Of a DNA stretch of 64,000 bases, positions 13,750 to 53,740 are shown piece by piece (position 1 is the first letter of the stretch; each line of letters begins with the position of its first letter). Both the position numbers and the translations under genes were made by a program. The stretch lies in the NCBI RefSeq assembly GCF_055900595.2, contig NZ_CM148325.1; one strand, 5' to 3'. The notes beneath the pieces are model-generated. The model ran no database searches and was not told the origin of the DNA. It was given only the letters and a program-made list of their open reading frames with translations.

Positions 13750-16700
13750 ATGCAGGTCAGCAGAAGGCAGTTCTTTAAGATCTGCGCTGGCGGTATGGCA
13801 GGCACCACGGCAGCGGCACTGGGTTTTGCACCCAGCGTAGCACTCGCGGAAACCCGGCAGTATAAACTGCTGCGCACCCGCGAAACCCGTAATACCTGCA
13901 CCTATTGTTCCGTAGGCTGTGGGCTGTTGATGTACAGCCTCGGTGACGGAGCAAAAAACGCCAAAGCATCTATCTTCCATATCGAAGGTGACCCGGATCA
14001 CCCGGTCAACCGCGGTGCACTTTGTCCGAAAGGCGCTGGCCTGGTGGATTTCATCCACTCCGAAAGCCGTCTGAAGTTTCCGGAATACCGTGCGCCAGGT
14101 TCTGATAAATGGCAGCAAATCAGTTGGGAAGAGGCGTTTGATCGCATTGCCAAACTGATGAAAGAAGACCGCGATGCTAACTACATTGCGCAAAACGCCG
14201 AAGGCGTGACTGTTAACCGCTGGCTCTCCACCGGGATGTTGTGTGCTTCCGCGTCGAGTAACGAAACCGGCTATTTAACGCAAAAATTCTCCCGCGCGCT
14301 GGGTATGCTCGCGGTCGACAACCAGGCGCGTGTCTGACACGGACCAACGGTAGCAAGTCTTGCTCCAACATTTGGTCGCGGTGCGATGACCAACCACTGG
14401 GTCGACATCAAGAACGCCAACCTCGTCGTGGTGATGGGCGGTAACGCCGCTGAAGCACACCCGGTCGGGTTCCGCTGGGCGATGGAAGCCAAAATTCACA
14501 ACGGCGCGAAGCTGATTGTGATCGATCCTCGCTTTACGCGTACGGCGGCGGTGGCTGACTACTATGCCCCTATTCGTTCCGGTACTGACATTGCTTTCCT
14601 GTCAGGCGTATTGCTGTACCTGCTGAACAATGAAAAATTCAACCGCGAATACACCGAAGCCTATACCAACGCCAGCCTGATCGTGCGTGAGGATTACGGC
14701 TTTGAAGATGGCCTGTTCACCGGCTACGACGCGGAAAAACGCAAGTACGATAAATCCTCCTGGACCTACGAGCTGGACGAAAACGGCTTCGCCAAACGCG
14801 ATACCACGCTGCAACATCCGCGCTGCGTGTGGAACTTGCTGAAACAGCACGTTTCCCGTTATACGCCAGATGTGGTTGAAAACATCTGTGGTACGCCGAA
14901 AGACGCGTTCCTGAAAGTCTGCGAATACATCGCCGAAACCAGTGCTCACGATAAAACTGCCTCGTTCCTTTACGCGCTCGGCTGGACGCAACACTCCGTT
15001 GGTGCGCAAAACATTCGAACGATGGCGATGATCCAGCTGCTGCTCGGCAATATGGGGATGGCAGGCGGCGGCGTTAACGCCCTGCGCGGTCACTCCAACA
15101 TTCAGGGGCTGACGGACCTGGGGCTGCTGTCGCAGAGCCTGCCAGGTTACATGACGCTGCCAAGCGAGAAGCAGACCGATCTGCAAACCTACCTTGCCGC
15201 CAACACGCCGAAACCGCTGCTGGAAGGCCAGGTTAACTACTGGGGCAATTACCCGAAATTCTTCGTCTCCATGATGAAGGCCTTCTTTGGTGATAAAGCG
15301 ACGGCAGAAAACAGCTGGGGCTTTGACTGGTTGCCGAAGTGGGATAAAGGCTACGACGTCCTGCAATACTTCGAGATGATGAAAGAGGGCAAGGTCAATG
15401 GCTATATCTGCCAGGGCTTTAACCCTGTTGCCTCATTCCCGAACAAAAACAAAGTGATCGGTTGTCTGTCGAAACTGAAGTTCCTCGTCACTATCGACCC
15501 GCTGAACACTGAAACCTCTAACTTCTGGCAGAACCACGGTGAGCTGAACGAAGTGGACTCGTCGAAGATCCAGACCGAAGTGTTCCGTCTGCCATCGACC
15601 TGCTTCGCGGAAGAGAATGGTTCAATCGTTAACTCCGGTCGCTGGTTGCAGTGGCACTGGAAAGGTGCGGACGCCCCGGGGATTGCGCTGACTGATGGCG
15701 AGATCCTCTCCGGTATCTTCCTGCGCTTGCGCAAGATGTACGCCGAACAGGGTGGCGCGAACCCGGACCAGGTGCTGAACATGACCTGGAACTACGCCAT
15801 CCCGCATGAGCCGAAGTCGGAAGAAGTGGCGATGGAGAGCAACGGTAAGGCGCTGGCCGATATTACCGATCCGGCAACCGGGGCGGTTATCGTCAAGAAA
15901 GGCCAACAACTTAGCTCGTTCGCACAACTGCGCGATGACGGTACCACCTCCTGTGGCTGCTGGATTTTCGCCGGTAGCTGGACGCCAGAGGGCAACCAGA
16001 TGGCGCGCCGTGATAACGCCGATCCGTCTGGCCTCGGTAACACGCTGGGCTGGGCATGGGCATGGCCGCTTAACCGCCGCATTCTGTATAACCGCGCCTC
16101 CGCAGATCCGCAGGGTAACCCGTGGGATCCGAAGCGTCAGTTGCTGAAATGGGACGGCACCAAATGGACCGGCTGGGATATTCCGGACTACAGCGCAGCG
16201 CCTCCGGGCAGTGGCGTCGGGCCGTTTATCATGCAGCAGGAAGGCATGGGGCGTCTGTTTGCCCTCGATAAGATGGCGGAAGGTCCGTTCCCGGAACACT
16301 ACGAGCCGTTTGAAACGCCGCTGGGAACTAACCCACTGCATCCAAACGTTATCTCGAACCCGGCTGCACGTATCTTTAAAGACGACGCCGAAGCATTGGG
16401 TAAAGCCGATAAGTTCCCGTATGTCGGAACCACCTATCGTCTGACCGAGCACTTCCACTACTGGACCAAACACGCGCTGTTGAATGCGATTTTGCAGCCA
16501 GAGCAGTTTGTGGAAATCGGTGAGTCGCTGGCGAATAAACTTGGCATTGCTCAGGGCGATACCGTGAAAGTCTCCTCCAACCGTGGCTATATCAAAGCCA
16601 AAGCGGTGGTGACCAAACGTATTCGCACGCTGAAAGCGAATGGCAAAGATATCGATACCATCGGTATTCCGATTCACTGGGGCTATGAAGGTGTTGCGAA

Positions 16701-19455: not shown

Positions 19456-19554
19456 GCCTGATGCGCTGCGCTTATCAGGCCTACCAATAAACTGCAATAT
19501 GTTGAATTTGCACGACTTTGTAGGCAGGATAAGGCGTTCACGCCGCATCCGGCA
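19456..19554. repeat. REP/BIME palindromic elements
   Basis: gcctgatgcgctgcgcttatcaggcctac and tgtaggcaggataaggcgttcacgccgcatccggca. Confidence 0.7.
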
Positions 19555-44653: not shown

Positions 44654-46477
44654 TTAATCGTCTTTCGGTGCGCGGTTGGCGCGACGACGATCGTTTTCCG
44701 TCAGGTGACGTTTACGAATACGGATAGAGGTCGGAGTCACTTCTACCAGTTCGTCATCATCGATGAACTCCAGCGCTTGTTCCAGCGTCATGCGGATAGG
44801 CGGAACCAGAACAACGGCTTCGTCAGTACCGGAAGCACGCATGTTGGTCAGTTTCTTACCGGTCAGACAGTTTACAGTCAGGTCGTTAGAACGGCTGTGA
44901 ATACCGATAATCTGACCTTCGTAAACTTCTGCACCGTGACCGAGGAACAGCTTACCGCGATCCTGCAGACCGAACAGCGCGAACGCGACCGCTTTACCCT
45001 GACCGTTAGAGATCAGTACGCCGTTCTGACGCTGACCCACTTCACCCGGACGCACGTCGTCGTAGTGGCTGAAGGTGGAGTACAACAGACCCGTACCAGA
45101 GGTCATGGTCATGAACTCAGAACGGAAGCCAATCAGACCACGGCTTGGGATCACGTAGTCGAGACGTACGCGGCCTTTACCGTCTGGATTCATGTTTTTC
45201 AGGTCGCCTTTACGTTCGCCCAGCGCCTGCATCACAGAACCCTGATGCTGTTCTTCAACGTCCAGCGTCACGTTTTCATACGGCTCTTGTTTACGACCGT
45301 CGATTTCACGGAAGATAACTTTCGGACGGGATACCGCCAGTTCGAAACCTTCACGACGCATGTTTTCGATCAGAACAGACAGGTGCAGTTCGCCACGACC
45401 AGAAACGCGGAACGCATCGGCGTCTTCAGTTTCTTCTACGCGCAGCGCAACGTTGTGTACCAGTTCTTTGTTCAGACGATCCAGAATCTGACGAGACGTT
45501 ACGAACTTACCTTCTTTACCGCAGAACGGCGAGGTGTTAACGCAGAAGAACATAGAAACGGTCGGCTCATCAACGGAGAGTGCCGGCAGCGCTTCAACGT
45601 TTTGCGTGTCGCAAACGGTGTCAGAAATGTTCAGTTCGCCCAGGCCCGTGATCGCCACGATATCGCCAGCTTCCGCCAGATCGGTTTCGATACGTTCCAG
45701 ACCGAGGTGGCCCAGCACTTTACCGACTTTCGCGTTGCGGGTTTTGCCTTCGCTATCGATGATAGTAACTTGCTGGTTCGGCTTCACTTTACCGCGCTTG
45801 ATGCGGCCAATGCCGATAACGCCAACATAGCTGTTGTAATCGAGCTGAGAAATCTGCATCTGGAACGGACCGTCAAGGTCAACGTCCGGCGCAGGAACGT
45901 GGTCAACAATTGCCTGATACAGCGGGGTCATGTCTTCCGCCATATCTTCGTGGTCCAGACCGGCGATACCGTTCAGCGCAGAAGCGTAAACGATCGGGAA
46001 GTCCAGCTGCTCGTCGGTCGCGTCGAGGTTAACGAACAGGTCGAATACCTGATCCACAACCCAGTCAGGACGCGCGCCAGGGCGGTCAACTTTGTTGATA
46101 ACAACAATTGGCTTCAGGCCGTAAGCAAACGCTTTTTTGGTTACGAAGCGCGTTTGCGGCATCGGGCCGTCAAATGCGTCAACCACCAGCAGCACTGAGT
46201 CTACCATGGACATTACACGTTCAACTTCACCACCGAAGTCGGCGTGCCCCGGGGTATCAACGATGTTGATACGGTAATCATTCCATTTGATAGCGGTGTT
46301 TTTCGCGAGGATGGTAATCCCACGCTCTTTCTCCAAATCGTTGGAGTCCATCACGCGCTCTTGGGTTTCGGCACGAGAGTCGAACGTACCGGATTGTTGG
46401 AGCAGCTTGTCTACCAGGGTGGTTTTACCATGGTCTACGTGCGCGATGATGGCGATATTACGCAATTTTTCGATCAC
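44654..46477 (-). CDS. bipA: Ribosome-associated translational GTPase BipA/TypA (607 aa)
   Basis: G-domain motifs [18 protein letters not shown]. Confidence 0.95.
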
Positions 46478-46628
46478 AACTTTGCCTCAGGCATTAGAAA
46501 TAGCGCGTTATTGTACACGGATTAATCGCACTACAAAACAGGATCACAAACATCCTCCGCAAACAAGTATTGCAGAGTCCCTTTGTGATCGCTTTCACGG
46601 AGCATAAAAAGGGTTATCCAAAGGTCAT

Positions 46629-46720
46629 TGCACCAATATGGTGCTTAATGTTTCCATTGAAGCACTATATTGGTGCAATATTCACATCGTGGTGCAGCCC
46701 TTTTGCACGATGGTGCGCAT
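46629..46720 (+). promoter_or_regulatory. NtrC (GlnG) enhancer sites upstream of glnA
   Basis: Repeated TGCACCA-N-TGGTGCA dyads (tgcaccaatatggtgc, gcactatattggtgcaa, tggtgcagcccttttgcacgatggtgcgca). Confidence 0.75.
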
Positions 46721-46750
46721 GATAACGCCTTTTAGGGGCAATTTAAAAGT

Positions 46751-46766
46751 TGGCACAGTTTTCGCT
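46751..46766 (+). promoter_or_regulatory. sigma-54 promoter glnAp2
   Basis: tggcacagttttcgct matches the -24 GG / -12 GC consensus. Confidence 0.75.
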
Positions 46767-46849
46767 TTATCTTTTTTACGGCGACACGGCCAAAATAATT
46801 GCAGATTTCGTTACCACGACGACCATGACCAATCCAGGAGAGTTAAAGT

Positions 46850-48259
46850 ATGTCCGCTGAACACGTACTGACGATGCTGAACGAGCACGAAGTGAAGTTT
46901 GTTGATTTGCGCTTCACCGATACCAAAGGTAAAGAACAGCACGTCACTATCCCTGCTCATCAGGTGAATGCTGAATTCTTCGAAGAAGGCAAAATGTTTG
47001 ACGGCTCCTCGATTGGCGGCTGGAAAGGCATTAACGAATCCGACATGGTGCTGATGCCAGACGCATCCACCGCAGTGATTGACCCGTTCTTCGCGGACTC
47101 TACCCTGATTATCCGTTGCGATATCCTTGAACCAGGCACCCTGCAAGGCTATGACCGTGACCCGCGTTCCATCGCGAAGCGCGCTGAAGATTACCTGCGT
47201 TCTACTGGCATTGCCGACACCGTACTGTTCGGGCCAGAACCTGAATTCTTCCTGTTCGATGACATCCGTTTCGGCGCGTCTATCTCCGGTTCTCATGTTG
47301 CCATCGACGATATCGAAGGTGCATGGAACTCCTCCACCAAATATGAAGGTGGTAACAAAGGTCACCGTCCGGCAGTGAAAGGCGGTTACTTCCCGGTTCC
47401 GCCGGTAGACTCTGCTCAGGATATCCGTTCTGAAATGTGTCTGGTGATGGAACAGATGGGACTGGTAGTTGAAGCCCATCACCACGAAGTAGCGACTGCT
47501 GGTCAGAACGAAGTGGCTACCCGCTTCAATACCATGACCAAAAAAGCTGACGAAATTCAGATCTACAAATATGTTGTGCACAACGTAGCACACCGCTTCG
47601 GTAAAACCGCGACCTTTATGCCAAAACCGATGTTCGGTGATAACGGCTCCGGTATGCACTGCCACATGTCACTGTCTAAAAACGGCGTCAACCTGTTCGC
47701 TGGCGACAAATATGCAGGTCTGTCTGAGCAGGCGTTGTACTACATTGGCGGCGTAATCAAACACGCTAAAGCAATTAACGCCCTGGCAAACCCGACCACC
47801 AACTCTTACAAGCGTCTGGTCCCGGGCTACGAAGCACCGGTAATGCTGGCTTACTCTGCGCGCAACCGTTCTGCGTCTATCCGTATTCCAGTGGTTTCTT
47901 CTCCGAAAGCACGTCGTATCGAAGTCCGTTTCCCGGACCCAGCGGCTAACCCGTACCTGTGCTTTGCTGCCCTGCTGATGGCCGGTCTTGATGGTATCAA
48001 GAACAAGATCCACCCAGGCGAAGCCATGGACAAAAACCTGTATGACCTGCCGCCAGAAGAAGCGAAAGAGATCCCACAGGTTGCAGGCTCTCTGGAAGAA
48101 GCACTGAACGAACTGGATCTGGACCGCGAGTTCCTGAAAGCCGGTGGCGTGTTCACTGACGAAGCCATTGATGCGTACATCGCTCTGCGTCGCGAAGAAA
48201 ATGACCGCGTGCGTATGACTCCGCATCCGGTAGAGTTTGAGCTGTACTACAGCGTCTAA
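46850..48259 (+). CDS. glnA: Glutamine synthetase (469 aa)
   Basis: Translation matches GlnA. Confidence 0.95.
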
Positions 48260-48320
48260 TAGTTGAAGTTGTACTACCCGGTGCTAAGAAGGCCGGGATT
48301 TAGTTGCCGTGGAAACTTTC

Positions 48321-48347
48321 AGCCCATCTCTGCATGGGCTTTTTTCT
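48321..48347 (+). terminator. glnA intrinsic terminator (3' end of glnA 3'UTR)
   Basis: agcccatctctgcatgggct followed by tttttt. Confidence 0.75.
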
Positions 48348-48390
48348 CCGTAACTTCTTTGATGCTTCGCGCTTTTTATCCGTAAAAAGC

Positions 48391-48412
48391 TATAATGCAC
48401 TAAAATGGTGCA
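48391..48412 (+). promoter_or_regulatory. glnL promoter -10 (tataat) overlapped by an NtrC site
   Basis: tataat at 48391-48396; tgcactaaaatggtgca dyad immediately after. Confidence 0.6.
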
Positions 48413-48433
48413 ACCTGTTCAGGAGACTGCTTT

Positions 48434-49483
48434 ATGGCAACAGGCACGCAGCCCGATGCTGGGCAGATCCTCAACTCGCTGATTAACAGTATTTTGTTAA
48501 TTGATGACAACCTGGCGATCCATTACGCCAACCCCGCCGCACAACAACTGCTCGCTCAAAGCTCCCGCAAATTGTTTGGTACACCGTTACCGGAACTGTT
48601 GAGCTACTTCTCATTAAATATCGAGCTGATGCAAGAAAGTCTTGAGGCGGGGCAAGGTTTTACCGATAACGAAGTGACGCTGGTCATCGACGGGCGCTCG
48701 CATATCCTTTCTGTGACGGCCCAGCGTATGCCGGACGGCATGATCCTGCTGGAGATGGCACCGATGGATAACCAGCGCCGCTTAAGTCAGGAACAGCTAC
48801 AGCACGCCCAGCAGGTTGCTGCCCGTGATTTAGTGCGCGGCCTGGCGCATGAGATTAAAAATCCGCTTGGCGGTTTACGTGGCGCGGCCCAGTTGCTCAG
48901 CAAAGCATTACCTGACCCGTCACTGCTCGAATATACCAAAGTGATTATCGAACAGGCGGACCGGCTGCGAAATCTGGTCGACCGTCTGTTGGGGCCGCAG
49001 CTGCCTGGTACGCGCGTTACCGAAAGTATTCACAAAGTGGCTGAACGCGTGGTGACGTTGGTGTCGATGGAACTGCCGGACAACGTGCGGTTGATTCGTG
49101 ATTACGACCCCAGCCTGCCGGAACTGGCGCACGACCCGGATCAAATTGAACAGGTATTGCTGAATATTGTGCGCAATGCACTTCAGGCGCTGGGGCCGGA
49201 AGGTGGTGAAATCATTCTGCGTACCCGCACCGCGTTTCAACTGACTTTACACGGCGAGCGCTATCGGCTGGCGGCGCGGATTGATGTGGAAGATAACGGG
49301 CCAGGCATTCCGCCTCATTTGCAGGATACGCTGTTTTACCCGATGGTCAGCGGCCGCGAAGGTGGCACCGGGCTTGGCTTATCCATCGCCCGTAATTTGA
49401 TTGATCAGCATTCAGGCAAAATTGAATTTACCAGTTGGCCAGGTCATACCGAGTTCTCGGTTTACCTGCCTATCAGGAAATAA
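48434..49483 (+). CDS. glnL: Nitrogen-regulation sensor kinase NtrB (349 aa)
   Basis: H-box [10 protein letters not shown]1/G2 boxes. Confidence 0.9.
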
Positions 49484-51140: not shown

Positions 51141-51245
51141 GCCGGATGCGGAGAAAGTCGTAGGCCTGATAAGACGCGACCAGCGTCGCATCAGGCATCA
51201 TGCTCAGATGCCGGATGCAGCGTAAACGCCTTATCCGGCCTACAA
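51141..51245. repeat. REP/BIME cluster
   Basis: gccggatgcgg..., taggcctgataagacgcgaccagcgtcgcatcaggca, gatgccggatgcagcgtaaacgccttatccggcctac. Confidence 0.7.
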
Positions 51246-53426: not shown

Positions 53427-53493
53427 AATGGTTCGTCTTTTAGCCGTTTTATTCAGTATAGATTTGCGGCGGAATCTAACAGAAAGCAAGCAA

Positions 53494-53740
53494 AGAAAAA
53501 AGGCGACAGATTACTCTGTCGCCTTTTTTCCTGACTCATAACCCTTAACGGGTCTTACAATCCTTGCAGGCCGCCAACACACCCTGTTTTTCCATTAGCC
53601 GGAACAATCCGTGTTGATTCCATTTCCGTTTAATTACGTCTCCGGACGTTTGTCTTCCTGACAATCCTCTGTCTTCGCCTCCTGGCGCTCCTGACCCTCA
53701 TCCTGAGTCATTGTTCCTGTTAGCGTCCTCGCTCTATGGG
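53494..53740 (-). ncRNA. csrC: CsrC small RNA (CsrA-sequestering)
   Basis: About 14 GGA triplets on the minus strand; ends in hairpin ggcgacagagtaatctgtcgcc plus U-run; position between yihI and engB. Confidence 0.8.

Follow-up and report, generated by a model that had tools for sequence, protein, structure and literature searches.

A rare variant of the O157-type GlnZ small RNA, most probably, in the glnA 3′UTR of a divergent Escherichia coli lineage

The locus raises the question of whether the short segment between the glutamine synthetase gene glnA and its terminator is a source of the small RNA GlnZ, and in which of its published forms. GlnZ is defined by a conserved seed, 5′-UUGCCGUGGAAA-3′, and a conserved Rho-independent terminator in the glnA 3′UTR, and three architectures are known in E. 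coli, of 85 nt in O157, 230 nt in O111 and 197 nt in K-12 (PMC9731577; bioRxiv 10.1101/2022.04.01.486790). The O111 type corresponds to the O157 type with an insertion, while in the K-12 type the seed lies beside the stop codon and is followed by a REP insertion ahead of the terminator (2022 GlnZ papers). GlnZ couples nitrogen assimilation to carbon flux, in that one transcript yields both glutamine synthetase and an sRNA throttling 2-oxoglutarate dehydrogenase, pyruvate dehydrogenase and glutamine import. With a probability of roughly 90%, we assign positions 48260-48345 of the window (the whole 64-kb stretch of DNA analyzed) to the O157-type, or Class I, GlnZ sRNA, also published as EsrF. 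The feature is already known: it is a described sRNA in the commonest E. coli architecture, present here as a rare sequence variant. To this we add a survey of the architectures in complete E. coli genomes, evidence for constraint on one module across Enterobacterales and a description of the rare hairpin-1 allele.

Architecture and identity of the glnA 3′UTR

The window is from Escherichia coli. Eight complete genomes, NZ_CM128599.1 and NZ_CP098223.1 among them, match it at ~100% identity across the 24 kb surrounding the site; identity falls to 96.5-98.4% in the genomes that come next, which indicates that the lineage is divergent. RefSeq annotates the identical locus of NZ_CP098223.1 as glnA (WP_001271704.1). 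The initial annotation had described a stem and a terminator after glnA, and the sequence, the open reading frame list and a terminator scan agree with that description after small corrections to its coordinates. The first stem, CCCGG/CCGGG, is present and starts at 48277, one base before the position first noted (48278); the 3′UTR, counted from the base that follows the stop through the last T, measures 86 nt rather than 88 nt; and the end given as 48347 lies 2 nt past the T-run, whose last T is at 48345. The parts follow one another as glnA stop, 17-nt leader, hairpin 1, single-stranded extended seed AUUUAGUUGCCGUGGAAA and Rho-independent terminator (Table 1), with 44 nt between the glnA stop and the core seed and 5 nt between the seed and the terminator stem. 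This agrees with the published Class I layout, in which the seed adjoins the terminator and stands at a short distance from the stop. The 5-bp stem of hairpin 1 may be lengthened to six pairs by a U26-G36 wobble. The terminator had been called strong, and AGCCCAU/AUGGGCU with its T6 is indeed the only strong plus-strand site after glnA in the terminator scan; it is expected to form the 3′ end and the Hfq-binding module of the sRNA. The start codon of glnL is an ATG at 48434. Two small ORFs with TTG starts that lie over the region (48263-48385 and 48304-48486) come from the mechanical ORF list only and, being without support, were rejected as genes.

Table 1. Coordinates of features around glnA and its 3′UTR in the window
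Feature	Positions	Strand	Details and basis
Two NtrC-type palindromes upstream of glnA	46629-46645, 46661-46677	+	pattern TGCACYNNNNTGGTGC
Putative glnAp2, σ54-type promoter	46751-46766	+	TGGCAC-N5-TCGCT; GG 46752-53, GC 46764-65
glnA CDS (glutamine synthetase, 469 aa)	46850-48259	+	stop TAA 48257-59; ORF list; parental mRNA of the sRNA
Candidate RNase E site AG|UUU inside glnA CDS, 22 nt before stop	48234-48238	+	RN|WUU motif scan; degenerate motif, inference only
Full glnA 3′UTR, most probably O157-type/Class I GlnZ (EsrF), 86 nt	48260-48345	+	alignments with EPEC E2348/69, O157:H7, O111, K-12
Hairpin 1	48277-48297	+	CCCGG 48277-81 / CCGGG 48293-97, loop UGCUAAGAAGG (11 nt); sequence, folding
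GGGAUUUAG motif, reported flhB-binding site of EsrF	48295-48303	+	Jia 2021 (PMC8092317); overlaps hairpin 1 3′ arm
Extended seed AUUUAGUUGCCGUGGAAA	48298-48315	+	core seed UUGCCGUGGAAA 48304-48315, exact match to published seed (PMC9731577)
Rho-independent terminator	48321-48345	+	AGCCCAU 48321-27 / AUGGGCU 48334-40, loop CUCUGC, T6 48340-45; terminator scan
Presumed glnL promoter region	48391-48412	+	-10 TATAAT 48391-96, overlapped by NtrC palindrome TGCACTAAAATGGTGCA 48396-48412; sequence, NtrC pattern

Alignment with EPEC E2348/69, O157:H7, O111:H11 and K-12 reproduced the three published architectures. From the stop to past the terminator, the window is identical to the O157/EPEC allele save for four changes clustered in hairpin 1, and the core and extended seed are invariant in all E. 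coli types aligned. The segment had been proposed as the source of GlnZ, with comparison to published sequences as a check; the exact match to the published seed, the base-for-base alignment with O157/EPEC through leader, seed, spacer and terminator, and a match to a model built from non-Escherichia sequences (E 4e-16, see below) all support that proposal. A strain variant without the seed region had been named as a possible counterexample, and here the seed is intact. The reading is refined in that the form is the short O157 type and not that of K-12, which has 194 nt and contains a REP element. For the O157/EPEC glnA 3′UTR, experiments have demonstrated both expression of the sRNA and repression of its targets (PMC9731577; bioRxiv 10.1101/2022.04.01.486790).

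The O157-type GlnZ (Miyakoshi et al. 2022, PMC9731577), Class I (Walling et al. 2022) and EsrF (Jia et al. 2021) share locus, strand and architecture with the window. The published O157-type RNA measures 85 nt, as does EsrF by RACE, whose 5′ end was mapped to the T that follows the stop (PMC8092317), compared to 86 nt in the window. K-12 GlnZ (Class III, 194-197 nt) has the same seed, terminator, targets and parental gene but differs in having its seed 10 nt after the stop, a REP-containing insertion before the terminator and no hairpin 1. In Salmonella GlnZ1 and GlnZ2 (Class II, 185 nt and ~50 nt), the seed adjoins the terminator as it does here, whereas ~140 nt of unrelated sequence separates the stop from the seed; the short isoform processed by RNase E has the seed at its 5′ end (PMC9731577), and the window has a matching GA|UUU site. 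A G beside the seed abolishes aceE regulation in Salmonella, and the window has a U at that position, like all E. coli (PMC9731577). CpxQ, SdhX, SroC and NarS, which are likewise enterobacterial 3′UTR sRNAs processed by RNase E, follow the same logic of biogenesis (an mRNA 3′ end with a terminator, release by RNase E and Hfq-dependent seed pairing) but derive from different genes and have different seeds and targets; CpxQ is conserved over its whole length, GlnZ only in seed and terminator.

Rfam searches gave no family in the region at the gathering threshold, and Rfam 15 contains no GlnZ family. Among matches at E<=10, only RF02766 Ysr49 (Yersinia sRNA 49) was relevant, at 28.8 bits and E 0.0011; the region was rejected as a member, since this falls short of the 95-bit gathering threshold and the alignment covers the half with seed and terminator but not the 5′ two-thirds. 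The other matches at that cutoff (anti-hemB, mir-202 and so on) were discarded as terminator-like noise. The 3′ half of the Ysr49 consensus consists of the GlnZ seed and terminator, which suggests that Ysr49 is probably the Yersinia GlnZ orthologue under another name. The Ysr49 gathering score was not reached at the Yersinia massiliensis, Escherichia sp. MOD1-EC7003, Enterobacter cloacae and Serratia plymuthica loci. Recognizing the O157-type form matters mostly for annotation: because RefSeq lists no feature there and Rfam 15 lacks a GlnZ family, sequence scans will keep reporting GlnZ as new.

Conservation across Enterobacterales and the hairpin-1 allele

We assessed conservation by scanning one genome per species for the seed 25-55 nt from a glnA-like stop, which returned 36 loci. 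The scan returned only one other Escherichia species, with no E. fergusonii, E. marmotae or E. ruysiae among the loci, and a match in a Lactobacillus MAG was rejected as a homologue because it was a chance pattern match without a terminator. Invariance of the seed across the 26 distinct non-Escherichia sequences is not independent evidence, since the search pattern fixed the 12-nt seed. Neither the G that precedes the seed nor the AAAC-UUU spacer was required by the pattern, yet both were invariant or nearly so in these sequences, and the terminator stem was invariant in all 26. In Enterobacter, Serratia, Pantoea, Erwinia, Hafnia and Yersinia alike, terminator and seed flanks did not vary, whereas the stretch from stop to seed was free to do so. 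The evidence suggests that, across Enterobacterales, only the seed and terminator module is constrained.

Given the absence of a GlnZ family from Rfam 15, we built our own covariance model from the seed and terminator module of the 26 non-Escherichia sequences. It had a single full-length match in the 64-kb window, at 48296-48345 on the plus strand (64.4 bits, E 4e-16), and the next best score was 14.7 bits. On K-12 the model matched in two separate pieces (33.6 and 23.1 bits), as expected for the split Class III layout.

Folding was less informative. The whole 3′UTR folds no better than dinucleotide shuffles (z −0.53 and −0.74), and hairpin 1 of the window taken alone is marginal (−10.6 kcal/mol, z −2.1, with 6 of 200 shuffles as good). 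A GUACUA/UAGU(U)GC helper pairing is also predicted. Because folding energy is unremarkable, the evidence that the features are real is comparative. The common hairpin, CCCGGCG-CAACAA-CGCCGGG, reaches −14.9 kcal/mol (z −4.3), compared to −10.6 for CCCGGU-GCUAAGAAG-GCCGGG in the window; relative to the O157 type the changes are C>U, +U, C>G and C>G, with the loss of the top two G-C pairs and an enlargement of the loop from 6 to 9-11 nt. The initial annotation had placed its emphasis on this first stem, which does exist but is the least conserved and least informative part of the 3′UTR, the functional seed lying between stem and terminator. The seed UUGCCGUGGAAA itself had not been pointed out there.

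Coverage classes among 5426 complete E. coli genomes comprised ~2857 with the short form (~53%), ~996 with the insertion (~18%) and ~1572 that were K-12-like (~29%). The exact 94-nt sequence of the window occurred in 13 of the 5426, strains Z0117EC0005, E500002 and AST85 being carriers of this allele, and five more genomes differed from it at one or two loop positions; positions 48285-86 of the loop vary within the window's haplotype. The hairpin-1 changes lie on a divergent haplotype that also carries a D>N change in GlnA, several synonymous sites at the end of glnA and three bases past the terminator, where the downstream bases resemble those of Escherichia sp. MOD1-EC7003.

The predicted energy for opening the core seed is 3.84 kcal/mol in the window and O157 alleles alike. 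With predicted seed accessibility unchanged, the window's hairpin-1 allele would most likely be functionally neutral. Only the CGGGAUUUAG segment, at the GGGAUUUAG motif, is predicted to open more easily than in the O157 allele (6.7 vs 9.5 kcal/mol). If the weaker hairpin were not neutral, eased opening of CCGGGAUUUAG could favor a ~47-nt isoform via RNase E and could expose the flhB-binding motif, thereby altering the balance between metabolic (sucA, glnP and aceE) and motility (flhB) regulation in this lineage; we hold this to be quite improbable. The rare allele could serve as a natural test of hairpin 1 function.

Targets, transcription and processing

We examined target leaders in NZ_CP098223.1. 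The sucA leader, in the sdhB-sucA spacer, has UCCACGGCGA, complementary to UUGCCGUGGA. The glnH-glnP spacer has CCACGGUAA, which ends 10 nt before the glnP ATG, and the published glnP site is just upstream of the SD (PMC9731577). The pdhR-aceE spacer has CGGCAACUAAA, a perfect complement of UUUAGUUGCCG, with a C opposite the seed G at −99; this C-99 was validated by the compensatory mutation pair G12C/C-99G (PMC9731577). Of the three targets, aceE is specific to E. coli. Prediction of seed pairing, another check proposed at the outset, gave a divided result: the sites are intact at sucA, glnP and aceE, but duplex energies between the seed segment and the target leaders were not clearly better than with shuffled seeds (sucA 81/500, glnP 96/500, aceE 11/500), aceE being modestly better. 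These duplexes were computed with the single-stranded seed segment, not the full-length sRNA; RNAduplex runs of the full-length sRNA against whole leaders were discarded because they ignore intramolecular structure and gave meaningless 80-nt duplexes. Since the duplex energies do not discriminate, the case for the targets rests on the coincidence with validated sites. For the O157-type RNA, induction at low nitrogen and repression of glnP, sucA and aceE have been published (Walling 2022, bioRxiv 10.1101/2022.04.01.486790), and the EPEC allele was recovered in published Hfq RIL-seq. In the cheZ-flhB spacer, the flhB leader of NZ_CP098223.1 contains AGCCCUAAAUCCCGCC, including CUAAAUCCC, which is complementary to the GGGAUUUAG motif.

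Promoter motifs were assessed against chance expectation. The NtrC pattern TGCACYNNNNTGGTGC had 6 matches (3 palindromes, each on both strands) compared to 0.72 expected, and none of 100 shuffles reached 6. We take the two palindromes upstream of glnA to be the enhancer through which nitrogen limitation induces the glnA-GlnZ transcript. The σ54 motif had a single match in the window compared to 0.06 expected, and from its sequence we infer that it is an active glnAp2. A glnL promoter with an NtrC site had been said to follow the terminator immediately, which holds: TATAAT overlapped by the palindrome TGCACTAAAATGGTGCA presumably constitutes this promoter, and no position of the stretch differs among the six E. 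coli types aligned. A simple σ70 scan missed it because its −35 is poor. A role of NtrC at glnAp2 is also reported by Walling 2022 (bioRxiv 10.1101/2022.04.01.486790).

GlnZ processing depends on RNase E and Hfq (PMC9731577), and experiments on this release and on induction by nitrogen limitation have been published for the O157, O111 and K-12 alleles; in K-12 two RNase E sites flank the glnA stop codon, the upstream one being conserved (PMC9731577). Matches to the degenerate motif RN|WUU occur at 48235|36 in the CDS and at 48297|98 and 48298|99 (GGGA|UUUAG), the latter two overlapping the GGGAUUUAG motif. The candidate in the CDS would be the counterpart of the conserved upstream site. Cleavage at 48297|98 or 48298|99 would leave an RNA of ~47 nt whose seed is close to the 5′ end, as in Salmonella GlnZ2.

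The mechanism that we propose draws on experiments published for alleles whose seed and terminator are the same as here. When nitrogen is limiting, activation of glnAp2 by NtrC and σ54 would give a glnA mRNA that ends at the 48345 terminator. RNase E with Hfq would cleave near the stop codon, with a probable second cut at GGGA|UUUAG, to release sRNAs of ~86 nt and ~47 nt. The seed of the Hfq-bound sRNA would pair with the sucA, glnP and aceE leaders and repress them, such that 2-oxoglutarate consumption and glutamine import would be reduced while the same transcript also yields glutamine synthetase.

Alternative readings of the segment

The EsrF model (Jia et al. 2021) describes an 85-nt primary sRNA, transcribed independently from a promoter within the final part of glnA, repressed by NtrC and higher at high ammonium, which activates flhB, and hence motility and virulence, through pairing of GGGAUUUAG with the flhB 5′UTR that relieves Rho termination. 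It draws on published Northern, TEX, RACE and mutational data (PMC8092317), and its elements are present in this lineage: the motif is intact, its complement CUAAAUCCC is in the flhB 5′UTR of NZ_CP098223.1, and hairpin 1, which would sequester the motif, is weaker here by the opening energies given above. The motif is nevertheless half buried in hairpin 1, and a consensus scan predicted no σ70-like plus-strand promoter in 46400-48700, where a weak promoter can escape detection from sequence. Two independent groups found the O157 RNA to be induced by low, not high, nitrogen and to depend on glnA transcription and RNase E processing (PMC9731577; bioRxiv 10.1101/2022.04.01.486790), and a PglnZ-lacZ fusion was inactive in K-12. 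We consider it unlikely that the EsrF model accounts for the segment; the EsrF role could add to GlnZ function rather than replace it. The primary transcript and the opposite ammonium response in Jia 2021 (PMC8092317) stand against reading the RNA as a processed GlnZ. An account confined to cis effects, in which the terminator and a hairpin that stabilizes glnA mRNA insulate glnA from glnLG with no trans role in the window lineage, would fit the published finding that the terminator stabilizes glnA mRNA in K-12, as well as a fold that is not exceptional compared to shuffles. The invariance of terminator and seed flanks across genera while the stop-to-seed sequence varies is not what a terminator alone would lead one to expect, the 12-nt seed together with its flanks exactly matches alleles of demonstrated trans activity, and the cognate target sites are conserved in the window lineage. 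On these three grounds a purely cis role is very improbable.

A further reading gives hairpin 1 a function of its own, for example as a 5′ protective stem of the long isoform, a cap at the 3′ end of glnA mRNA after cleavage or an upstream terminator that leaks, such that its weakening would change isoform ratio or mRNA stability. Most Class I homologues have a hairpin between stop and seed, even where its sequence is unrelated, as in Serratia, Pluralibacter and the Enterobacter soli group; the CCCGG/CCGGG base is kept in Escherichia, Enterobacter and Erwinia; and the common-allele hairpin followed by AUUUAGUU resembles, judged by its sequence, a weak terminator. Among 13 Escherichia, Enterobacter and Erwinia sequences, pairing in hairpin 1 is kept in 92% of alignment cells, compared to 20-45% with the 3′ partners slid. 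Covariation in the same 13 sequences was not significant (two pairs with double changes, a level reached by 202 of 500 shuffles), and we therefore do not claim structural selection on hairpin 1. Yersinia massiliensis, Affinibrenneria and Hafnia have short spacers with no obvious hairpin, and K-12 lacks hairpin 1 altogether. The O111-type insertion disrupts the 3′ arm in our alignment, yet the O111-type RNA is made and expression of the operon is equivalent (2022 GlnZ papers). A function of hairpin 1 is accordingly unlikely, and the O157-type GlnZ reading stands with a first hairpin that is under weak constraint at most.

The glnA 3'UTR beyond Escherichia

The GlnZ family is absent from Rfam 15, and the sole Rfam family touching window 48240-48345 (+) was Ysr49 (RF02766), which scored 28.8 bits where its gathering threshold is 95. 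The 3' half of the Ysr49 consensus corresponds to the seed and terminator of GlnZ, which makes it probable that this family is the Yersinia GlnZ orthologue under a different name. When the glnA locus of Yersinia massiliensis (L035) was scored with Ysr49, it likewise fell below the gathering threshold.

Alignment of the seed-plus-terminator module with 26 glnA 3'UTR sequences from other genera (A4) showed that the CUCUGC terminator loop (window 48328-48333; alignment columns 34-39) is Escherichia-specific, with C-UUCG/UCCG-G or similar in its place in all 26. In the other genera the terminator stem thus gains an eighth pair, a closing C-G, topped by a tetraloop, and Escherichia has neither.

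We also compared the spacer between the glnA stop and the seed among loci L012-L045. In Serratia, Pluralibacter, Silvania and the Enterobacter soli group, this spacer contains a GC-rich hairpin of unrelated sequence (for example, L017:393-474, L021:1702-1783 and L028:1053-1134), which is separated from GUUGCCGUGGAAA by a run of six to seven U immediately 5' of GUUGCCGUGGAAA. The spacer is short and has no evident hairpin in Yersinia massiliensis, Affinibrenneria and Hafnia. The arrangement of a hairpin followed by the seed is convergent among the genera that have it, without sequence homology.

Lineage and locus variation within E. coli

Across 24 kb (window 36000-60000), identity was ~100% to eight complete genomes and 96.5-98.4% to the next nearest, and the window accordingly falls in a divergent E. 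coli lineage. In one matching genome, Z0117EC0005, a 'type III effector' gene lies close to GlnZ targets, as does a cluster resembling filamentous phage (Zot, GspD-like, replication endonuclease).

The O111-type insertion (O111:H11, L003:360-540) begins within the 3' arm of hairpin 1, where …CGCCGG is followed by AGGTTCAAA…, and AGGTTCAAA recurs at its far end. Our alignment puts the insertion at ~145 nt, which disagrees with the 98 nt stated in the eLife text, yet the 3'UTRs there are 230 vs. 85 nt (PMC9731577).

In strain AMSHJX01 (L006, NZ_CP030939.1 4847417-4848756), the sequence before the glnL promoter region is not the glnA 3' end but fragments of ybhP and clsB, both frameshifted, and glnL is also annotated as frameshifted. 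A rearrangement or assembly problem has thereby removed GlnZ from its place upstream of glnL in this genome.

Other Rfam matches in the window

The typA-glnA intergenic region carries a strong match to the ES222 sRNA (RF02755), which overlaps or abuts the glnA NtrC enhancer sites (46629-46677), such that the glnA control region bears an antisense or divergent sRNA annotation. The five remaining matches are each expected in this chromosomal region.

Rfam matches elsewhere in the window
Feature	Window position	Strand	Rfam score
ES222	46559-46666	-	133 bits
CsrC	53484-53737	-	above gathering score
Spot 42	54766-54884	-	above gathering score
SECIS_3 element	14332-14390	+	above gathering score
naRNA4 (REP-derived)	51163-51240	-	above gathering score
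ES036	19477-19519	-	above gathering score
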